Origin: a virus
Lineage: Duplodnaviria; Heunggongvirae; Uroviricota; Caudoviricetes
Virus record (IMG/VR): IMGVR_UViG_2671180770_000010
Location: 1 to 8,162 of that record
Length of the DNA stretch: 8,162 bases
Reading direction: 5' to 3' (one strand)
Under the pieces are notes generated by a model. That model worked only from the letters and a program-made list of their open reading frames with translations, had not been told where the DNA came from and did not search any database. The position numbers and the translations under genes are program-made. Shown here one piece after another: positions 1-8,162 of this stretch. How positions within the stretch are numbered: position 1 is the stretch's first letter; the number at the start of each line of letters is the position of its first letter.

Positions 1-40
1 GTTGACGAAGACGATTCAGATTTTCTTCTTTTGTTGCCAT
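1..40 (-). CDS. 5' end of a lambda gpFI-like DNA-packaging protein gene (partial, runs off the window)
   Basis: Minus-strand ATG at 38-40 with GGAGG at 46-50 upstream. The 13 translated residues MATKEENLNRLRQ resemble the lambda FI N-terminus as I recall it. It lies directly downstream of a capsid gene and terminator, as in lambda E-FI. Only 13 codons are visible. Confidence 0.4.
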   Translation of the reverse strand, partial: MATKEENLNRLRQ

Positions 41-54
41 CTCAGCCTCCTGTG

Positions 55-83
55 AAAAAAGACACGGGGGCATTTCGCCCCCG
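55..83 (-). terminator. Rho-independent terminator after the truncated capsid gene
   Basis: On the minus strand, stem CGGGGGC, loop GAAAT, stem GCCCCCG, then TGTC and a T6 run. It begins 8 nt after the stop at 92-94. Confidence 0.6.
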
Positions 84-91
84 CTCACGGA

Positions 92-883
92 TTATTTCAC
101 CTGCACCACCACAAACTCATCCGGATCCGGCAGCACCATCAGCGGTGCGGACTGCGTCATGGTGAATTCACGGGCCGGATCGCCCACAGTCAGCCAGTGT
201 TTCGGATAACGGGAAGAGGCCACCACACCTTCGGACAACGCCTGCGCATCCTGAATGGCACCATAGCAACGAATGCCCTCTGCTGCCGTATTCCCCAGGA
301 CCAGTGTGCCCACCGGCAGATAACGTTTTTCGGTACCGTCGTCTGCCACATAAGACGTTTTCGCCACCACAATGGCCAGATCACCGTAATACCCTTTGAA
401 AGACACCACCGCTCCCAGGTCTTTCACTGCCGTTTCGAGTTGTGAATTTGAGCCGCGACGGGTATCCAGTTTTTCGCGGAACAGCTTAAAGCCATTCAGC
501 AGACGCCAGACCGTACCGTCCATAATGGCAATATTTACAAGACCGCTGGCCTGATCGCAGTAAAGGTCAATATCATGCGTCGGATCAAACGTATCACGGT
601 CCTGCTCAGACCATTTTTTACCGTCGGCCTGCTCAATGTTATTTCCTTCAGAGCGTCCGAAATCCACCTCGACCGTGTCAAACTGTTCCCCTTCCATGGT
701 GTATTTGCCATACAGCACGGCATTCACCGCCTGCATTTCTTCCACCTGGACAATGGCGTGCTCTTCCTGTTTGAGGTTATCGGTAATGATACGCAGACGA
801 CGGTAGGCCGGGTCGTTCAGCTGAGCCGGATCTTCACCAGGAAGGCGCTCAACCGCCTGCTGGTAATTAAATTCGTGTTTGGG
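92..883 (-). pseudogene. N-terminally truncated lambda gpE-family major capsid protein (roughly residues 80-341 retained)
   Basis: The translation carries gpE-like blocks (VEEMQAV, KLDTRRGSNS.LETAVKDLG, GDPAREFTM.QSAPLM, PDEFV.VQ). Hand translation upstream of the listed start shows the homology continuing to 883 (PKHEFNYQQAVERLPGEDPAQLNDPAYRRLRII). It then ends at an in-frame TAA at 884-886 with no start codon. Candidate internal starts are GTG 743-745 and ATG 734-736. Confidence 0.8.
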
Positions 884-1019
884 TTACATGAGTCAAATAT
901 GAAAGGATGTGAATGATTTGATTACGTTTTAGCTATAGAATTGAAATGGAAAATCCTTGAATGCAATACAACGTGCAATACATGGATGAAAACCATCACT
1001 CATTTAACAAGAGGAATCT

Positions 1020-1925
1020 ATGCGCTCACCCAACAGAATGCATGAACGCTCAACATTTTATAAGTATATGTCGTTGAATACCGCGAAGATTGTTCTTGAT
1101 TCATGCAGCCTTAGATGGAGTTCTCCGGTCCTATTTAATGACCCTTTTGATGTTCCAAGAGAAGTTATGCCTGGTATTAACGAAATTAATATTGGCAAAG
1201 CTTTAGCCCGCAAGTTAATAGCGGAGTTGATTACCCCCAGAGAAGACATACAAAATTTAAATCCTAGAATTAGAACAATGCTAAGTGATTTCCAAAAGTC
1301 ATTTCCTTTAGGCATACCCGCAGGATTAATTGAAAGATTTCAAGAAATGGTAAACATTCCACCAGTTGGGATTGGCGCTCCTGCGGCAATACAAGAAATG
1401 AAAGATGTCTGGCGAGGAATGCTTAATAACAGAAGGATTTTGTGTTTATCTGAGAGCCCTATAATCACTCCTATGTGGAATCACTATGCCGATAAATATA
1501 AAGGTATAGTTATCGAATTTGATTGTGTAGACTTTCTGGATAGCGCTTGGTTAATAGCCAAACCTATGAAATACACAGATGAAATGCCTCTAACTCACAC
1601 TGCTGAAGGGATGGCCGAGTTGCTTTTCATGCCAGACAATAAGTCAATTGAATATATCAATAATGAGATAATATTCATAAAAACAGAAGAATGGGCATAT
1701 GAAAGAGAGTGGAGAATTTCAACCTACGCTAGGCCAAATAGCACTGGTCAATATAGCGACTTAAAATTTCACCCTTTTGAGTTAAAATCTGTAATACTTG
1801 GTCCTCTTTTTGATGCCAGCGAGTTCGATGAAGTCGCATCACTAGTTAAGATGTATCCAAGAGCGAAATTATTTAAAAGTTCATTTGGGAACGACAGAAA
1901 AATATCCATAGTACCACTACCTTAA
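1020..1925 (+). CDS. Hypothetical 301-aa protein, DUF2971-like (tentative family assignment); candidate accessory or anti-phage cargo gene
   Basis: Long ORF with AGAGGA 5 nt before the ATG. It is strongly AT-rich compared with its flanks and is convergent with the neighbouring phage genes. Motifs YKY..L......L......SP.LFNDPFD, LCLSE and W.HYAD.YKG..IEFD match my recollection of DUF2971. Confidence 0.7.
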   Translation: MRSPNRMHERSTFYKYMSLNTAKIVLDSCSLRWSSPVLFNDPFDVPREVMPGINEINIGKALARKLIAELITPREDIQNLNPRIRTMLSDFQKSFPLGIPAGLIERFQEMVNIPPVGIGAPAAIQEMKDVWRGMLNNRRILCLSESPIITPMWNHYADKYKGIVIEFDCVDFLDSAWLIAKPMKYTDEMPLTHTAEGMAELLFMPDNKSIEYINNEIIFIKTEEWAYEREWRISTYARPNSTGQYSDLKFHPFELKSVILGPLFDASEFDEVASLVKMYPRAKLFKSSFGNDRKISIVPLP

Positions 1926-1956
1926 AAGGTCAAATGCTTTTGACAAATAAAATCTA

Positions 1957-1980
1957 TCGCCAGTTTTACTGGCGACTTTT
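1957..1980 (+). terminator. Rho-independent terminator downstream of the 301-aa gene
   Basis: Stem TCGCCAGT (1957-1964), loop TTT, stem ACTGGCGA (1968-1975), then CTTTT. It sits between the two convergent genes. Confidence 0.5.
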
Positions 1981-2031
1981 AAGCAACAAAGAACCACCTA
2001 AGCACTCTTCCTACCTATGGTTTCATTTGTT

Positions 2032-2583
2032 TTAACTTCGCTGATTATCCTTGATATACCTTTCAGCCATATCTGGAATGTTATCTGAGATCTGGTAAGC
2101 TCGAATAAATGCTTTACTGACCTCCATCTTAATGAAGTCCTGATACCGTTTTTCCATGCCAGGAAACTGTCGACAGATCGCAAGTGGAAGACTATCAATG
2201 ATTGCTCCAACTTCCCCAGTTAATTTCGACAAGGCATAAGTCGCAAATGCAGTGTCAATTACCTCACCTGTTTCGCTGGCATTCTTCAGTTCCTGTGCGT
2301 CGGCCTGCGCACGCGTAAGTCGATGGCGTTCATACTCAATAGTCCCTGGCAGGAGATCTGCCTCGCTGGCCTGCCGCAGTTCTTCAACCTCCCGGCGCAG
2401 CTTTTCGTTCTCAATTTCAGCATCCCTTTCGGCATACCATTTTATGACGGCGGCAGAGTCATAAAGCACCTCATTACCCTTGCCACCGCCTCGCAGAACG
2501 GGCATTCCCTGCTCCTGCCAGTTCTGAATGGTACGGATACTCGCACCGAAAATGTCAGCCAGCTGCTTTTTGTTGGCTTCCAT
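2032..2583 (-). CDS. Terminase small subunit, lambda Nu1 family (mosaic, divergent C-terminal part)
   Basis: The first ~103 residues are almost identical to lambda Nu1 as recalled (MEANKKQLADIFGASIRTIQNWQEQGMPVLRGGGKGNEVLYDSAAVIKWYAERDAEIENEKLRREVEELRQASEADL...). The remainder is recognisably related but divergent and AT-rich. A lambda-like cos lies immediately upstream and the length (183 aa) matches Nu1 (181 aa). Confidence 0.9.
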   Translation of the reverse strand: MEANKKQLADIFGASIRTIQNWQEQGMPVLRGGGKGNEVLYDSAAVIKWYAERDAEIENEKLRREVEELRQASEADLLPGTIEYERHRLTRAQADAQELKNASETGEVIDTAFATYALSKLTGEVGAIIDSLPLAICRQFPGMEKRYQDFIKMEVSKAFIRAYQISDNIPDMAERYIKDNQRS

Positions 2584-2610
2584 TGTTCATTCCACGGACA
2601 AAACCAGAGA

Positions 2611-2800
2611 AAGGAAACGACAGAGGCCAAAAAGCCTGTTTTTAGCACCTGTCGTTTCCTTTCTTTTTAGGGGGTGTTTTTAATAAAAACATTAAGTTAC
2701 GGCGAAGAAGAACGGAAACGCCTTAAACAGGAAAATTTTCACAAATAGCGAAAAACTGCGCGCCTGACGCCCCGTAACGTTCTGGATCACCGGAAAGGAC
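2611..2800 (-). other. Lambda-type cos site: conserved cosB (about 2611-2758), variant cosN (2761-2772), cosQ-like flank (about 2779-2800)
   Basis: The minus-strand sequence GTTACG-GGGCGTCAGGCG-CGCAGTTTTTCGCTATTTGTGAAAATTTTCCTGTTTAAGGCGTTTCCGTTCTTCTTCG...GAAAGGAAACGACAGGTGCT...CTGTCGTTTCCTTTC...GTGGAATGAACAATG parallels the lambda cos/Nu1 leader as I recall it. The 12-nt cosN equivalent is GGGCGTCAGGCG against lambda GGGCGGCGACCT. Confidence 0.7.
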
Positions 2801-2828
2801 CCGCCAGCCAGAGCGGGCCCTAATTTCA

Positions 2829-3212
2829 TCAACCAATCAGCTTATAGCGACCATCCCGTGCATTGCGGCGTACACGCTCAATCTTGAGGCATAGCGCCGC
2901 ATCTGGCTTTTTTGGGACAGGTACGCGGCAATATTCAGAAGCGCGAGGAATATTATTTATCCAGTCGATCACTTCACTTAAATACCAGGCCTTACGCCCT
3001 TCCGTAACCTGCACACGCTCCGGGAACTCTCCACTAGCCTCAAGGTTTAGCAGTGTACGACGACTCAGGGTTGTAATTTCCATCACCTGATTCATATCAA
3101 CAAGGCGCTCGCTTAAACACATTTTGTCAGCGATAGCTTTTAATTCCTCTACAGCTGGATTCGGGTACATCATTTCGGCAATTGGCTTAAGGTCATTGTA
3201 ATCATTCTGCAT
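2829..3212 (-). CDS. AlpA/Xis-like HTH DNA-binding protein (127 aa), last gene of the capsid operon and adjacent to cos
   Basis: The C-terminal segment EITTLSRRTLLNLEASGEFPERVQVTEGRKAWYLSEVIDWI fits the AlpA-family MerR-like HTH pattern. The start ATG at 3210-3212 follows AGGGGGA, just after the upstream gene's TAA. Confidence 0.6.
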   Translation of the reverse strand: MQNDYNDLKPIAEMMYPNPAVEELKAIADKMCLSERLVDMNQVMEITTLSRRTLLNLEASGEFPERVQVTEGRKAWYLSEVIDWINNIPRASEYCRVPVPKKPDAALCLKIERVRRNARDGRYKLIG

Positions 3213-3223
3213 TGTATCCCCCT

Positions 3224-3565
3224 TTACACACGAGCCAGCGGCTGAACAGAAATACCTGAGCCAACAAACGCTGCAACCTTTACTGACAGTTCTTTAACAG
3301 ACTCAGGCCAGTTCAGAGCATCAACATTTAAGACACCTGTCTTATAGACCTGAGCCTGTGTTTTTTTCGCGGTGTCGATTTGTACAGCGGAAACATAAAC
3401 CGCTTTACCTACGCTCGAACCATCCCATACTACCAGTGCACCTGTTGCATCTTCCTGCATCAGTGGCGTAAATGCAGGAATTACCCCTTTATTAGCTGAA
3501 AATATCCCCAGCGTAGTCACCAGTGCTTCAGTGCCAGCCATGAGTTCAGTGTAATGAGTAGCCAT
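3224..3565 (-). CDS. Head decoration protein, lambda gpD family
   Basis: 113 aa against lambda D at 110 aa. Shared blocks include TPLMQEDATGALVVWDG (lambda TPLMLDTSSRKLVAWDG), YKTGVLNVDALNWPES (lambda YKSGTFRYEDVLWPEA) and AFVGSGISVQ (lambda AFAGTAISIV). A GGGGGAG ribosome-binding site sits between the upstream stop and the ATG. Confidence 0.8.
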   Translation of the reverse strand: MATHYTELMAGTEALVTTLGIFSANKGVIPAFTPLMQEDATGALVVWDGSSVGKAVYVSAVQIDTAKKTQAQVYKTGVLNVDALNWPESVKELSVKVAAFVGSGISVQPLARV

Positions 3566-3574
3566 TGCTCCCCC

Positions 3575-4615
3575 TTAGCCAATGCGAACGGTAACAAAAC
3601 GATTGATGCGGGCCGGTATTGGCTGTGGTGCTGAATGTGTCTGCACATATTCAATAGCCGGATCACCAGGCACAATATAGTTTTTCGGTGCAAGTTCGGC
3701 TTTAGTCAGCCCCATTCGGATTAGCTCCGGATCCTGAATACCGCCATAGGCGACAATCCCCTGAAGAGCCGTATTGCCAAGCACCATCAAATCAGGATCA
3801 AGGAAATGTTTTTCTGTTCCGTCCTCGTCGGTATAACGCCCGCTGTAAACAACAATCGCAACATCGCCCATATACCCTTTAAAACTCACCGAATCACCAA
3901 GGTCTTTAAGGGCCGTTTCCAGTTCGGAATTAGAACCACGACGGGTATCCAGAGCCTCTTTTATAGCTCTGAATGAACGGTATTTCTTCCATACATTACC
4001 GCCCATAATGATAATATTAGTGACGCCCTCACTAAATTCTGTGTAGCTCTCAATATCATCATTTGGATCAAAAGTTTCTTTATCCTTACCTGACCACTCA
4101 GCACCGCCAGACTGAGTGATGATATTTTGTGGTTTAATATTCCAGTCCAGCTCATAACGTTCAATACCATCGCCCTCAATGATATTTTTCCCCGTTGTGA
4201 TTGCCTGAACAGCAAGCCATTCAATACGTGCACGAATAGCTTTAGCTTGATTTACAATCGCCTGTTTAACTTTAATATTACGCGCCCCAAAAGCATTGTA
4301 TTGCTCAGGTGATACACCAGCAGGGCGCACAGCTAACTTATTTGGATCAATGCTGCTTTTCGGCTTCATATAGCCTGGACGAATTGTTTTTGATTCGTAC
4401 CCTTCGTCACGTGAAACTTTACTACCCACCATAGGAGAACAAAACGCTGCAATTGGGATATTTGGATCGTCGATTGTATCAAGAATAATATCGCGCGATT
4501 CAAACATTACCGAGCGAGTAAAAAACAAACTGGTAAACAACGCATTTAGTTGTTTTTGTACATCTACAGCATTAACCACCTGTACAAGCTGAGTAGGCGA
4601 ATATAAATCAACCAT
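3575..4615 (-). CDS. Major capsid protein, lambda gpE family (complete, 346 aa)
   Basis: gpE-like blocks run the full length (LYSPTQL..., RPGYMKPK, ITQSGGAEWS, DTRRGSNSELETALKDLG, GDPA.E). I moved the start to the ATG at 4613-4615, which has AAGAGG 6 nt upstream. The 404-aa ORF in the track is an upstream over-extension. Confidence 0.85.
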   Translation of the reverse strand: MVDLYSPTQLVQVVNAVDVQKQLNALFTSLFFTRSVMFESRDIILDTIDDPNIPIAAFCSPMVGSKVSRDEGYESKTIRPGYMKPKSSIDPNKLAVRPAGVSPEQYNAFGARNIKVKQAIVNQAKAIRARIEWLAVQAITTGKNIIEGDGIERYELDWNIKPQNIITQSGGAEWSGKDKETFDPNDDIESYTEFSEGVTNIIIMGGNVWKKYRSFRAIKEALDTRRGSNSELETALKDLGDSVSFKGYMGDVAIVVYSGRYTDEDGTEKHFLDPDLMVLGNTALQGIVAYGGIQDPELIRMGLTKAELAPKNYIVPGDPAIEYVQTHSAPQPIPARINRFVTVRIG

Positions 4616-4789
4616 ACGCATCCTCTTTGCATTCATTAAAAATAATTGTGGATATATGCTATCACCGATATTTGTCATGCGAACACATGCAACCGAGTGC
4701 AATGTTGTATAAAGTTTTGGGGTGACAACTTCAGTGCGGACAATTAGTGTTAATATCTTCACTCCCTTTGGTCGGGATTTATGTAGCAT

Positions 4790-4821
4790 GCCGGAAAATT
4801 TATTTTTTCCGGCCTTTTTTT
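4790..4821 (+). terminator. Plus-strand intrinsic-terminator-like hairpin between the SSB and capsid genes
   Basis: Stem GCCGGAAAA (4790-4798), loop TTTATT, stem TTTTCCGGC (4805-4813), then C and a T7 run. The T-run follows the hairpin only on the plus strand, which is antisense to the surrounding genes. Confidence 0.4.
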
Positions 4822-4832
4822 ATTGGCAATAT

Positions 4833-5282
4833 TTAAAACGGGATATCATCTCCCCATTGCTCATTATCTCCCACTGGTGGCTGGCTTCCTTGCTGATCTG
4901 CCTGTTGTTTTGCTCTGTTCAGTGCGTCAGTAGCCTGCCCCTGTTGGCCTTTTTTGCCGCCCGGTCGCACCGATCGCGCACTGATTACGCTGTCTGCGAT
5001 AACCTGCCAGCCCTGCCGCGTTTCGCCGTTCTGTCCAGTCCACTGGCTCATCTGCATGTTACCCGCCACGCTTAGGAGTTCGCCTTTGTGATGCTTTGCC
5101 AGCGCGTCGGCTTGTCTGCCAAACGCCAGGACAGATAACCACATCGTCGCCTGACCGTCATCCGACTGACTGCAGGGCAGTGATACCGCCATACGCGCCA
5201 GCGTCATGGGGGTGCCCTTGCTGGTCTGTTTTGTCTGCGGGTCGTCCACCAACCGCCCGTAAACTGATATTTGCGCCGTCAT
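4833..5282 (-). CDS. Single-stranded DNA-binding protein (SSB family), 149 aa
   Basis: OB-fold-like N-terminal region (ISVYGRLVDDPQ...TKQTSKGTPMT..., WLSVLAFGRQAD), a Gly/Gln-rich linker and the canonical acidic tail DDIPF. Its ATG overlaps the upstream gene's TGA as ATGA at 5279-5282. Confidence 0.8.
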   Translation of the reverse strand: MTAQISVYGRLVDDPQTKQTSKGTPMTLARMAVSLPCSQSDDGQATMWLSVLAFGRQADALAKHHKGELLSVAGNMQMSQWTGQNGETRQGWQVIADSVISARSVRPGGKKGQQGQATDALNRAKQQADQQGSQPPVGDNEQWGDDIPF

Positions 5283-5524
5283 GCTGCCTGCTCTCCGGAC
5301 TTAATATTGATTGTTGTCACTTCCTCCGCTTCAGCAATCTCCCGTTCGGTCAGAGTGGCAAAATTTGCAGCCGCCGTTGTCATGAATGCGCTAATCAGTT
5401 CGGGATGTGCTTTCGCGTATCCTTCCCCGGCGTTGCGGTCGATGATTTTTATCGACACCCTTAACCAGTGTTCCGTCAAATCAAGGGCGTGCGATTGTGA
5501 TTTTTTTGTGTGCTTCGCTGTCAT
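5279..5524 (-). CDS. Hypothetical 81-aa protein, translationally coupled to the SSB gene
   Basis: ORF sits directly downstream of the iteron region and overlaps the SSB start by ATGA. I do not recognise a family. Confidence 0.5.
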   Translation of the reverse strand: MTAKHTKKSQSHALDLTEHWLRVSIKIIDRNAGEGYAKAHPELISAFMTTAAANFATLTEREIAEAEEVTTINIKSGEQAA

Positions 5525-5570
5525 AGGCTTTATCTCACAGCAGTAAATTAAAATTTTTGCGTTTTAACCC

Positions 5571-5798
5571 TTCACCTGTTCACCTTTTGATATTTTCTCT
5601 TTTAATTCATAATGTTAATGGGTGAACAGTTTCACAAAAACTATTCACCAACTGTTCACCACTGTTCACCCTTGAAGCTCAATAAACAATCAAAAAGGTG
5701 AACAGTGAATAGTTTGGTGAACAGTTCATAAATAACTGTTCACCCTATAATATACTGATATAAAAGATATTTATGACAGGGTGAACAGTGGTGAACAG
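5571..5798. repeat. Iteron array (P4 ori/crr-type TGTTCACC repeats); putative replication origin
   Basis: About ten copies of CTGTTCACC or its complement GGTGAACAG in both orientations (5576-5584, 5621-5629, 5652-5660, 5662-5670, 5697-5705, 5716-5724, 5736-5744, 5780-5788, 5790-5798, plus degenerate copies). An AT-rich stretch lies at 5745-5779. The array is adjacent to the primase gene. Confidence 0.75.
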
Positions 5799-5811
5799 TT
5801 ATTCCATAAGT

Positions 5812-7632
5812 TTAATTTTTGCTATCGTCATTAGTGACCGATACACATGATGGCATCCAGTCTTCTGATTCCTCCGTCAGTGTCACGTTTGAACGCAAAC
5901 CGTGCTTCGTTTTCCGTTTCATATACTCCCTGCCATATTCCGCCATTGCCCCCGGCATATCTTTACCGAAGCGCGTCAGTGTTACAGGTTTACCAAACCC
6001 ATGTGCCCTCATATAAGCCAGATAGGCATGATAGAGATACCTGCGTGGGCTGAATGGCACAATTTCAGCATTACCCACTAACAGGCCATCACACATTACC
6101 GATGCCATGAGATAGCCGCAGAAGTCCACCAGCGAATCCCCCTCTCGCTTTATCGCCAGTGCTTCTTCAGATTTCTGCTGCTCATATAACAGGCGTCTGG
6201 CTTCGTCCTGATCAGCAAACCGTGTAAGCAGATGACGAATCACTACCGCCAGCTCACCTTCTATTTTTTCCGCCAGCATCGAATCGCGTTCGTTCTCCGG
6301 TACAACTTCCGAAAAATTGAATATCACCCGACGACGTGAGATCCCCCCGCTGCGGTCACTGAATGACATGGCGTTATTGTTAACCACCAGCACTACTGCC
6401 GGAATACGCGTTGAATAGGGGGCTTTGTGTTTCGGGTCAATTGCCACCTTGTCACCGCCTGTAATGGCCTTAATCCCTGCCCCATCACCAGCGTAGCGGG
6501 TCATATCTGGCATGATAATCAGCGAAAAGCCAACCACTAACGCACGTTCCCTTGCATCTTCCAGCGCCTTCATGCTTGCTGATACTGTATTAGCCTTACC
6601 CGCCAGCATGGTGCAAATCTCCGCCATCACGCTTTTACCACTTCCCCCCGGCCCTGTTACCTCAATGAATAACTGCCAGTCGTACCGGTTCGCCAGCACC
6701 ATGAATAATGCCGCCAGTACGCGATCTGCCTTGCGGTCATTCTCAGCCACCGAACGGCGCAACCACTTCCAGAAATTCGGCGCATGTGTTGCCAGCGTTT
6801 CCCCCTCTGCTGGTGGGCTGAAAGGTAATTCACTGGCAATTAACAACCAGTCGTTTTTGTTATGCTCCCGAAAATTACCTGTTCTGGTATCAAATACCCC
6901 GTTACTGAATCCAATCAGGTTACGGGCTGTATTCCCCATTACAGGCAAACTTAACTTCATGGTATCTACCGCCGATTTAATGGCGTTCTGCGAATAGCTG
7001 ATCTCCGCATCAATGAAAATCTGCGCCATAGCACGCTGTAACTCTTTATCCTGAACCGGCTCCCATACAACGCCGTTGTAATGATGAACGGTGTCAGAGT
7101 CGGCATTGATTGCCAGTTCGCCGCCGTAATGTGCCAGGAGAACTTCACCGCGCTGGCTGGCCCCCATCTGATTCAACGCCAAAGATGAAGCACGCTCGTC
7201 ATTTTTGCGCTCTGCCTTCTTCACTGGCAGTTCAATCACCAGACTTTCCCCATGCTCCGCTTCAGCTTTTAGGCCGACAAGGCGCGGAGTCCAGTCTTCA
7301 GGCTCTCGATCAACAAAGCTACGGTAACAACGTGCTTCCTTTACGCCTGCAATAGCAAGTAATGTCGCAACCTTCGTCAGACTTTTCTCTGCAATCTTTC
7401 CGGCACGATAAACACGCACATAATGACGGCCTTCATCGATAATTTGCATATCATCCAGGTTTTCCAGTTGTTCCGTACCCAGAATTACTGGTGGTGTATC
7501 ATCTGCTGCAATATGCTTACCTGCCCATTCATTCCATTCTTTTGCATGGCTCCAGGCATCACTGCCAGCAAAAATGATGACTTCCGTCATTTTGTCGCGC
7601 GGTTGGTATTTTAAGTTCGGAGCACGTTTCAT
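5812..7632 (-). CDS. P4 alpha-like replication protein (phage/plasmid primase-helicase family; pri-rep)
   Basis: 606-aa ORF with the Walker A motif GPGGSGKS (EVTGPGGSGKSV) in its central region. Its size, architecture and the adjacent TGTTCACC iterons are typical of P4-family and PICI primase/helicases. The ATG overlaps the upstream ORF stop as ATGA at 7629-7632. Confidence 0.85.
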   Translation of the reverse strand: MKRAPNLKYQPRDKMTEVIIFAGSDAWSHAKEWNEWAGKHIAADDTPPVILGTEQLENLDDMQIIDEGRHYVRVYRAGKIAEKSLTKVATLLAIAGVKEARCYRSFVDREPEDWTPRLVGLKAEAEHGESLVIELPVKKAERKNDERASSLALNQMGASQRGEVLLAHYGGELAINADSDTVHHYNGVVWEPVQDKELQRAMAQIFIDAEISYSQNAIKSAVDTMKLSLPVMGNTARNLIGFSNGVFDTRTGNFREHNKNDWLLIASELPFSPPAEGETLATHAPNFWKWLRRSVAENDRKADRVLAALFMVLANRYDWQLFIEVTGPGGSGKSVMAEICTMLAGKANTVSASMKALEDARERALVVGFSLIIMPDMTRYAGDGAGIKAITGGDKVAIDPKHKAPYSTRIPAVVLVVNNNAMSFSDRSGGISRRRVIFNFSEVVPENERDSMLAEKIEGELAVVIRHLLTRFADQDEARRLLYEQQKSEEALAIKREGDSLVDFCGYLMASVMCDGLLVGNAEIVPFSPRRYLYHAYLAYMRAHGFGKPVTLTRFGKDMPGAMAEYGREYMKRKTKHGLRSNVTLTEESEDWMPSCVSVTNDDSKN

Positions 7633-7916
7633 TTGTTACCTCCGGCAACTAACATTGCCCGAATTTTGCGGATATAGCCTGCGGCACGCCTCTGATTATC
7701 TGTCTTGCAATTTTTTACCAGAATGAAATCTCTTTCGAACTGCTGACGCGGCATAACACATTCAAAATCATAACCATCACGCAAATAAGAGACACGACGA
7801 TCATCAACCGAAATAATCTTTACCCGATAGCCATAGCTGTCTTTGAAAATATCCCCAAGGCTGATTTTTGAATGAGTTTGACCGCTGGCAATAAAGCCAG
7901 AAAATTTATTTTTCAT
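7629..7916 (-). CDS. Hypothetical 95-aa protein, translationally coupled to the primase gene
   Basis: ORF has GGAG 8 nt upstream of the ATG at 7914-7916 and an ATGA stop/start overlap with the primase gene. No family recognised. Confidence 0.5.
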   Translation of the reverse strand: MKNKFSGFIASGQTHSKISLGDIFKDSYGYRVKIISVDDRRVSYLRDGYDFECVMPRQQFERDFILVKNCKTDNQRRAAGYIRKIRAMLVAGGNK

Positions 7917-8162
7917 TTTTTATTCTCCGGTATAGCTCTGATCGTGTATTTTTATAGCTTCATCCAGCTCTTTGATGACAGGATCAAGTAACGTAATTAA
8001 CGCTCCAGCTAAATTAGCATCCCGTTCATCGTGTTCCGCATTTGTTGTCCCATCAAGCCAGGTTGGGCTTTGTTGAATAAATAAGATTTCGTGCGAACGA
8101 CCCTGTAGCTGGCTGGATTTTCAGGCAATACGCACGCTTTCTGGCATCCCAGCCTTTGTCAT

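Follow-up and report, generated by a model that had tools for sequence, protein, structure and literature searches.

A low-GC segment beside a lambdoid capsid gene as the 3' end of a helper-embedded satellite

The DNA studied here, called the window, is a stretch of 8,162 nucleotides from a tailed virus (Caudoviricetes; IMG/VR record IMGVR_UViG_2671180770_000010, positions 1 to 8,162). It very probably represents the downstream (attR) end of a helper-embedded phage-inducible chromosomal island (HE-PICI) of the published E:Phage_cap_E:80 type, seated at codon 80 of the capsid gene of a lambdoid prophage. The satellite occupies about 884 to 8061 and is part of an island of about 10.6 kb overall. 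A sequence-only reading had taken the AT-rich segment beside capsid gene E for a replacement of the A-W-B-C-Nu3-D-E(5') head block. The segment is instead the 3'-terminal accessory region of the satellite together with its attachment arm, and no deletion scar.

Helper-embedded PICIs were described by Tommasini, Mageeney & Williams (2023) and founded on 11capE (Eco567.11.E_Phage_cap_E_80) of Escherichia coli NRG857c, which has its integration site at codon 80 of the Phage_cap_E profile and shares this site with 201 further elements (PMC10111431). Treatment with mitomycin C led to precise excision of 11capE and restoration of the helper gene, as followed by quantitative PCR and deep sequencing (PMC10111431). 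The features of the window on which the argument rests are as follows.

1..40, minus strand: start of a helper FI-like DNA-packaging gene, which runs off the window (reverse complement reads ATGGCAACAAAAGAA...)
92..883, minus strand: 3' fragment of the helper major capsid gene E, 263 codons plus stop, cut at about codon 80 (Pfam Phage_cap_E)
876..885, minus strand: attachment (att) core identity block, AACCCAAACA on the minus strand (comparison of attL, attR and attB)
884..985, minus strand: satellite attR arm, with the doubled arm-type motif TGTATTGCACGTTGTATTGC at 963-982 (motif search)
1020..1925, plus strand: cargo gene for a 301-amino-acid DUF2971 / PADLOC PDC-S31 protein with an ADP-ribosyltransferase (ART)-like fold, convergent with the island late genes
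1956..1976, no strand assigned: bidirectional intrinsic terminator between the cargo gene and nu1 (terminator scan, RNA fold)
2032..2279, minus strand: satellite-type C-terminal module of Nu1, codons 102-183 plus stop, low GC (sequence comparison)
2280..2583, minus strand: lambda-type N-terminal part of Nu1, winged-helix DNA-binding domain and linker, codons 1-101 (nucleotide identity)
2584..2805, minus strand: satellite cos, with lambda-like cosB (R sites) and cosN (alignment with lambda and helper cos; pattern search)

A satellite nested in the helper capsid gene

The capsid fragment next to the segment belongs to a gene that exists whole elsewhere. Its match to Phage_cap_E at 95-883 covers profile positions 77-329 of 329 (E = 6.6e-47), and E. 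coli 700462 (CM128581) carries an intact E of 1029 bp (342 codons) that is 100% identical over window 95-883 (789 nucleotides) and has 80 codons more upstream. This uninterrupted gene is the empty insertion site. Position 883 is not the natural start of this capsid gene, as the same E allele has 342 codons where it is uninterrupted. Downstream of the fragment, the gpFI region of a related island locus (L002) matches window 1-94 at 92% identity, and the fragment lies on the strand of the island genes and of the downstream FI gene, so that all are co-oriented.

Related genomes were searched by megablast against 5426 complete E. coli genomes. The whole arrangement was found in 17 of them and the island backbone in many more (365 of 5426, about 7%), 31 of which carry the DUF2971 cargo segment at 99.8% identity or above; no genome of the set unites this E allele with this cargo and the insertion sequence (IS) discussed below. 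In five loci (CP127324, CP053079, CP054371, CM132922 and NRG857c), the head side reads terL-W-portal-S49 peptidase-D-E(5', 246 bp), followed by the island int. The island then runs int-alpA-...-primase-SSB-capE-D-HTH-(nu1)-cargo, with variable genes, an Icd-like gene and DUF4222 between alpA and primase in the four complete genomes, and is followed by E(3', 789 bp)-FI-FII-tail. Thus, the 246-bp 5' fragment of helper E, with D, C (S49 peptidase), B (portal), W and A, lies intact beyond the integrase in four complete genomes and in the founding 11capE locus. The head block that had been thought missing is present on the far side of the island, and comparison with related prophages that have intact head regions revealed an insertion of about 10.6 kb and no deletion.

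The same island is found within different capsid genes. Window 876-8065 is 99-100% identical to the island of CP127324, and islands L001-L004 are 99-100% identical to the window over 2829-8061, while the E fragments that flank the near-identical islands of the window and CP127324 share just 68% nucleotide identity. The presence of one island inside such divergent E alleles bears the mark of site-specific integration, not of common descent of a single locus. The backbone is also that of the founding element, as window 2546-8065 is 98.6% identical in nucleotides to 11capE of NRG857c. The integrase of the CP127324 island, which also has AlpA, is 99.5% identical to the 11capE integrase.

The gene order of the window follows the zones of this satellite type, with a Replication zone (DUF4222, D5 primase, origin iterons and SSB) and then a Late zone (capE, HDPD, AlpA-like gene and cos-nu1); the Integration and Bro zones lie outside the window and are visible in its relatives. 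Satellite genes (AlpA-like helix-turn-helix, D-like, E-like, SSB and primase), not phage lysis genes, precede cos. These genes lie upstream of cos, and nu1 is the last gene of the late zone. The E fragment and nu1 do not stand side by side on the map of one phage. The two breakpoints that had been placed inside two genes of one phage fall in two elements, E in the helper prophage and nu1 in the satellite.

Upon induction of the helper, late transcription would read into the satellite, which would then excise and restore E, as published for 11capE. Excision of this island would restore an E attB reading ...GTCAAGCCCAAACACGAA... An apparent deletion of head genes thus becomes a textbook case of a satellite lodged within its helper's capsid gene. 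Annotators and prophage-completeness tools otherwise score such prophages as defective.

Boundaries of the segment and the attachment site

The compositional part of the sequence-only reading was borne out. Between 884 and 2246, the GC content is 37.6%, compared to 53.3% in 1-883, 50.7% in 2247-2828 and 46.2% in the whole window, so that the proposed GC shift is real. The minimum among all 1363-nucleotide windows starts at 864 (GC 0.373), and every window of this size outside the segment has a GC of at least 0.426. GC at third codon positions gives the same picture, with 0.33 in the 301-residue gene and 0.39 in nu1 codons 113-183, compared to 0.55-0.59 in nu1 codons 1-112 and the E fragment. 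The 301-residue reading frame is the sole plus-strand gene of the window; all others are on the minus strand.

Both ends are sharply defined. Capsid homology ends at 883/884, and an in-frame TAA (minus strand 886-884) precedes the E reading frame of 95-883. This confirms the abrupt left end that had been recognized near codon 80 of E with a TAA at 884-886, in agreement with the Pfam profile start at 77 and with an intact allele longer by 80 codons. On the right, lambda-level nu1 identity ends at about 2277-2280 in a 60-nucleotide identity profile, close to the earlier estimate of about 2270. A BLAST joint with lambda nu1 at 2246/2247 was also considered and was shifted to this position by the same profile.

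The left end coincides with the attachment site. Comparison of attL, attR and attB places the crossover within CCCAA at 879-883. The 10-bp identity block of this integration site is present in the window as AACCCAAACA, with one difference that was traced to the attB of the helper allele, AGCCCAAACA. The identity blocks listed for this site in the published supplement are aacccaagca, agcccaagca and agccgaagca (PMC10111431). In the part of its supplement that was available, neither Phage_Nu1 nor the exact core variant of the window appears, which is not evidence of their absence.

The arm next to the core carries the arm-type motif expected for this site. The doubled TGTATTGC family motif has a single exact match in the window, at 963-982 on the minus strand (0.01 expected), 82 bp from the core centre. 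For the published doubled motif, tgTGTATTGCantgTGTATTGCa, the distance to the attP centre is 81 +/- 2 bp on the late-zone side and, for a second copy, 132 +/- 2 bp on the int side (PMC10111431). Both copies are found in each of islands L001-L004, at about 82 and 130 bp, and the int-side copy falls outside the window. The attR arm is 95-99% identical among E. coli and Enterobacter islands.

A variable cargo slot at the satellite 3' end

The low-GC segment lies in a slot that holds different genes in different islands. Between nu1 (or its remnant) or the AlpA-like gene on one side and the attR arm on the other, six different occupants were found with flanks that are 99% identical. They are AbiJ/Abi_C; an Mrr_cat nuclease; a GmrSD_N and HEPN pair matching NsnA/PD-T4-2, which is the cargo of 11capE too; FRG/PDC-S15 with DUF3892; a 398-residue protein that gave no family match; and DUF2971/PDC-S31. 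The known or candidate defence families among them are PDC-S31, AbiJ, NsnA/PD-T4-2, PDC-S15 and Mrr_cat, and in all islands compared the slot gene and the late genes converge. This slot is a variable cargo hotspot at the satellite 3' end. Immune systems have been reported at the 5' or 3' end of PICIs (PMC11364771).

Comparison with an Enterobacter island gave identities of 95% for the attR arm, 89% for the cargo and 85% for the 3' part of nu1, against 77% for the backbone. The greater likeness of arm, cargo and nu1 3' part points to exchange of end modules between islands. Cargo would be exchanged via homologous recombination between the conserved attR arm and nu1, and turnover would sometimes leave nu1 truncated, as in 11capE. 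We propose that the right-hand breakpoint falls inside nu1 because cargo exchange recombines through this gene.

The cargo variant of the window is not described in the founding paper of 11capE. It adds one variant, the DUF2971/PDC-S31 ART-like protein, to the slot of a known backbone, with joints that run through the satellite small-terminase gene.

A second variable slot, outside the window, lies between alpA and the Icd-like gene (L001 17771-18688, L002 18270-18953, L023 17648-18823 and L030 1021-1902). Its occupants include a 'putative phage abortive infection protein', DUF5677, a CAP12-PCTIR_TIR protein and unknowns. It is probably the 5'-end immunity region reported for PICIs (PMC11364771).

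The DUF2971 cargo gene

The convergent 301-residue gene, whose existence the earlier reading had rightly proposed, matches Pfam DUF2971 (PF11185; 40 bits against a cutoff of 22), PADLOC PDC-S31 (PDLC04990; 2.5e-32 across residues 9-289) and phrog_1762 (1e-68); NCBIfam gave no match for any of five proteins searched. Its motif-II tyrosine and the invariant ExE of motif III are conserved, as in the ART fold, and the closest folds are nucleic-acid-directed ARTs. Large helical inserts separate core strands, and such inserts are likewise described for DUF2971, a family placed among the DarT-like ARTs, in which the Tyr and ExE motifs are conserved (PMC12522546).

Orthologues occupy the same slot of homologous HE-PICIs in Enterobacter sichuanensis (88% identity) and Klebsiella aerogenes (71%), and in Enterobacter hormaechei a chromosomal island carries a relative with 56% identity next to HEPN_AbiV. 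The E. sichuanensis and K. aerogenes orthologues came to light in a large protein collection and its contigs. When one genome per species was scanned for proteins close to this DUF2971 gene, all matches were of 34% identity or less and came from unrelated phyla.

RefSeq/PGAP annotation starts the protein at Met50 (252 amino acids) and so leaves out the first 49 codons (window 1020-1166; 9908-10054 in L001). These codons include residues that are invariant in 58 homologues (H8, K15, Y16, W33-P36, N40-P42 and R47), and an AGAGGA ribosome-binding site stands ahead of the 301-residue frame. Because of these invariant residues and the ribosome-binding site, the 301-residue form is favoured over the Met50 start as the likely product.

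The cargo gene would be expressed alone during lysogeny, with transcription terminating at the hairpin shared with nu1. Its product would act as an abortive-infection defence against other phages, through NAD+-dependent ADP-ribosylation of nucleic acid as with DarT and Tpt1. A DUF2971 protein of Lactococcus plasmids, Aristaios, is an abortive-infection antiphage system (PMC11381338). By analogy with Aristaios, the cargo may be regarded as a swappable candidate anti-phage gene of the abortive-infection kind that would use NAD+.

An explanation outside defence, in which the protein is a factor of the satellite or helper life cycle or an effector directed at the host, appears unlikely. Its appeal is that PDC-S31 has the status of a candidate system, that about 18% of DUF2971 proteins are predicted effectors with ART effectors proposed in Legionella (PMC12522546), and that the promoter scan identified no promoter or regulator for the gene. 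The other occupants of the slot, which belong to Abi, restriction-like and HEPN families, speak for defence, as do the HEPN_AbiV neighbour of the 56% relative, the Abi-type antiphage activity shown for the Lactococcus protein (PMC11381338) and the nucleic-acid-directed ARTs as closest folds. Furthermore, the gene is absent from the founding island 11capE and is therefore dispensable for the satellite.

The terminator, the chimeric Nu1 and the cos site

Cargo gene and nu1 converge on a real terminator, as the sequence-only reading had held. Its hairpin spans 1957-1975 with T-runs on both strands, and the RNA fold has an energy of -17.6 kcal/mol (z = -3.27), a stability that was matched by none of 200 shuffles.

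The same reading had described a nu1 gene that is divergent in its 3' part and broken in the middle. The divergence stands and the break does not. The nu1 frame at 2032-2583 (minus strand) is complete, with 183 codons that match Pfam Phage_Nu1 at positions 1-162 of 164 with 273 bits. Nucleotides 1-300 are 97-100% identical to lambda nu1 and helper nohD; beyond them, identity drops to about 40-60%. At the protein level, residues 102-183 share 38% identity with the C-terminus of lambda and helper Nu1, the C-terminal 75 residues share 39% with lambda, and no closer match to this module was found in 50,697 phage records. In the carrier genome 980-2, helper nohD is lambda-like throughout and equals island nu1 up to codon 101 only.

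In lambda Nu1, DNA is bound by an N-terminal winged-helix domain, and a C-terminal region serves self-association and binding of the large terminase subunit (see also PMC9026076). Given this layout, the joint at about residue 101 separates DNA binding from self-association and large-subunit binding. In the island protein, the conserved lambda-type C-terminal half (self-association and gpA binding) is not found. Nor does nu1 overlap a gene for the large terminase, TerL: its stop at 2032 is followed by the terminator and the convergent gene, and the island has no TerL gene.

Among 120 Nu1 homologues, the C-terminal half is of the lambda type in 100 (at least 60% identity, with 84-100% among the matches listed at the top) and of the satellite type in seven. 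In five of these seven, the gene belongs to a capE-HDPD-AlpA-Nu1 late zone and is not followed by a gene for the large terminase. Joined to an N-terminus of the phage-21 type, the C-terminal module and the cargo recur in identical form (P0002). The idea that the low-GC 3' half of nu1 is a foreign piece was considered and rejected, as the contexts of related Nu1 proteins show a satellite lineage. Judged from these sequence comparisons, the 3' half is assigned to the satellite lineage, and the lambda-like 5' half with cosB is the helper-matching part.

Many other database proteins (P0008-P0072) have a lambda-type Nu1 N-terminus fused to phage or host domains unrelated to it, namely Ail/Lom, tail U, Caudo_TAP, capsid E, FI or portal. 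They look like nohA/nohD-type remnants of deleted prophages that are read through into the next gene.

Upstream of nu1, the cos region contains a cosB R2/R1 inverted repeat (I1) at 2608-2664, so that a full-length Phage_Nu1 gene lies downstream of a cosB with R sites, as is typical of a lambda-type small terminase. The sequence at the position of the 12-nucleotide cosN overhang, 2761-2772 (minus strand), is GGGCGTCAGGCG, also in islands L001-L004, and differs in 5 of its 12 bases from the GGGCGGCGACCT of lambda and the helper prophages. Enterobacter and Klebsiella HE-PICIs retain the lambda overhang, and two other islands have GGGCGTCGACCT. In relatives, the helper's own cos-nohD-A lies beyond the island.

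These observations raise the tentative, rather doubtful proposal that capE:80 satellites carry a private lineage of small terminase. Such a protein would combine a DNA-binding half matched to the helper (lambda-type here; phage-21-type in P0002 and P0109) with a satellite-specific half for oligomerisation and TerL binding, and in the E. coli backbone it would be paired with a private 12-nucleotide cohesive end (GGGCGTCAGGCG versus GGGCGGCGACCT). As part of this proposal, recombination may keep the DNA-binding domain matched to helper cosB. If true, the private Nu1 and cohesive end could allow diversion of the helper large terminase independently of Rpp, or poisoning of helper packaging. Turnover of cargo in the adjacent hotspot would then repeatedly remodel or delete this Nu1/cos device. 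The chimeric Nu1 and the altered cosN overhang are the only parts likely to interest a specialist and could be tested by lambda packaging assays.

Alternative origins of the segment

Two other origins were considered for the low-GC segment. First, it could be an independent mobile cassette (IS, transposon or integron-like) that was inserted between nu1 and E. The sharp change of composition at both ends fits a cassette, as does the conservation of the segment across genomes, which at 99.8-100% exceeds that of its surroundings. Nevertheless, a cassette is very improbable. No transposase was found and, in a repeat search, no terminal inverted repeats or flanking direct repeats at the segment ends. 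On the left, the segment ends in the att core and arm (tyrosine-integrase type) of the island as a whole, and on the right inside a continuous, intact nu1 frame. The right-hand joint differs among alternative cargos, with nu1 cut at about codon 64 in 11capE and L004 and full length here, which fits recombination and not transposition. Finally, the unit of 986-2279 was found in this slot only. BLASTN of 884-2270 against the 50,697 phage records gave no match and so identified no phage donor, and searches of the window with Rfam at gathering thresholds and with ARAGORN returned nothing.

Second, a defective lambda-like prophage could have lost everything from the middle of nu1 to E codon 80, with a foreign AT-rich fragment in place of A-W-B-C-Nu3-D-E(5'); the order cos-nu1(5')-[low GC]-E(3')-FI, taken alone, does resemble a lambda map with a hole, but this origin is hardly tenable given the satellite genes at 2829-8061 in place of lysis genes before cos, a full-length nu1 and a head block that is intact beyond the island in genomes with the same sequence. 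In one Logan contig (L033; ERR2538163, 3229 nucleotides), lysis-side phage DNA runs into a cosN of the lambda type and from there through a chimeric nu1, DUF2971 and attR into the beginning of the E 3' fragment. This is the product expected from a deletion by recombination between helper nu1 and island nu1, although a short-read contig could be an assembly chimera across the nu1 repeat. The Nu1 of this contig has a phage-21-type N-terminus and a satellite C-terminus, and its cargo and nu1 3' part are 100% identical to the window.

Several points weigh against the interpretation of the window as the attR end of an HE-PICI with a defence cargo. The authors of the 11capE study did not recover satellite or helper particles (PMC10111431). 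The integrase, alpA and attL lie outside the window and are assigned to this copy from the sequences of near-identical islands. The IS5-family interruption at about 8062 may mean that this copy is damaged upstream, with its mobility unproven. A promoter scan gave no sigma-70 match upstream of the cargo gene, and the suggested defence role is drawn from family membership, fold and neighbourhood, with PDC-S31 only a candidate system in PADLOC.

Other satellite features in the window

The remainder of the window holds the rest of the late zone and the replication zone of the satellite.

2829-3212, minus strand: AlpA-family helix-turn-helix protein, 127 amino acids, PHROG 2790 'excisionase and transcriptional regulator' (Pfam, PHROG)
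3224-3565, minus strand: D-like decoration gene (Pfam)
3575-4618, minus strand: complete second E-like capsid gene, 41% identical to helper E (Pfam)
4833-5282, minus strand: SSB (Pfam)
5279-5524, minus strand: open reading frame of 81 amino acids
5575-5804: iterons of a likely replication origin (iteron search)
5812-7632, minus strand: D5-type primase (Pfam)
7629-7916, minus strand: DUF4222 (Pfam)
cut at about 8062, minus strand: small conserved open reading frame upstream of DUF4222, interrupted by an IS5-family element

The gene at 2829-3212, a second AlpA-family gene, lies directly upstream of cos; it is 99.7-100% identical in L001-L004 and present in the islands of other genera, and it may serve as a late activator or as a regulator linked to packaging. 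About eleven copies of the 10-mer GGTGAACAGT are found in both orientations at 5575-5804, a region of 33-37% GC directly downstream of the primase gene. This region is likely the satellite replication origin, and the HE-PICI paper puts ori downstream of pri (PMC10111431). At the far end, 8062-8162 is the end of an IS5-family element, with 99-100% identity to copies that many E. coli chromosomes and plasmids carry under the annotation 'IS5 family transposase', and homology between the window and every related island stops at 8065.

Comparison with known systems

Compared to 11capE, the island of the window has the same backbone, insertion at E codon 80, core type, and doubled TGTATTGC arm motif at the same distance, as well as the same gene order and co-orientation with the helper late operon. 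It differs in three respects. First, nu1 of 11capE is a 64-codon remnant next to a slot that holds DUF262 (GmrSD_N) and HEPN, whereas the window has a chimeric nu1 of full length and DUF2971 in the slot. Second, the helper E allele is 68% identical in nucleotides to that of the 11capE helper. Third, this copy has an IS5-family insertion at about 8062.

The cargo protein shares with PDC-S31, Aristaios, DarT and Tpt1 the features of Pfam DUF2971, a single gene of about 300 amino acids, an ART-like core, and the Tyr and ExE motifs. It differs in that nothing antitoxin-like, in the manner of DarG, accompanies the cargo gene.

The cargo slot resembles the 3'-end immunity regions of Gram-negative PICIs and the cos-proximal hotspot of P4-like elements (Fillol-Salom 2022 and Rousset 2022, as cited in PMC11364771) in being a variable low-GC end slot that adjoins a packaging signal and carries candidate defence systems of one or two genes. 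It differs in belonging to a helper-embedded satellite, in having the attR arm and nu1 as its borders, and in having its exchange joints within nu1, so that turnover remodels or destroys the satellite small terminase.

Rpp-type PICIs of E. coli, such as EcCICFT073 (Fillol-Salom 2019; Feiss review, PMC9026076), likewise have lambda-like helpers, an int-alpA-pri arrangement and a capsid-gene homologue of their own, and their cos is followed by a small packaging-specificity gene. They keep the cosN and cosQ of the helper and have an unrelated cosB and Rpp instead of the small terminase TerS (PMC9026076). The island described here shows the opposite combination: its cosB is lambda-like, its Nu1 joins the helper DNA-binding domain to a C-terminal half of its own, and the cosN overhang is altered in this E. 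coli lineage.

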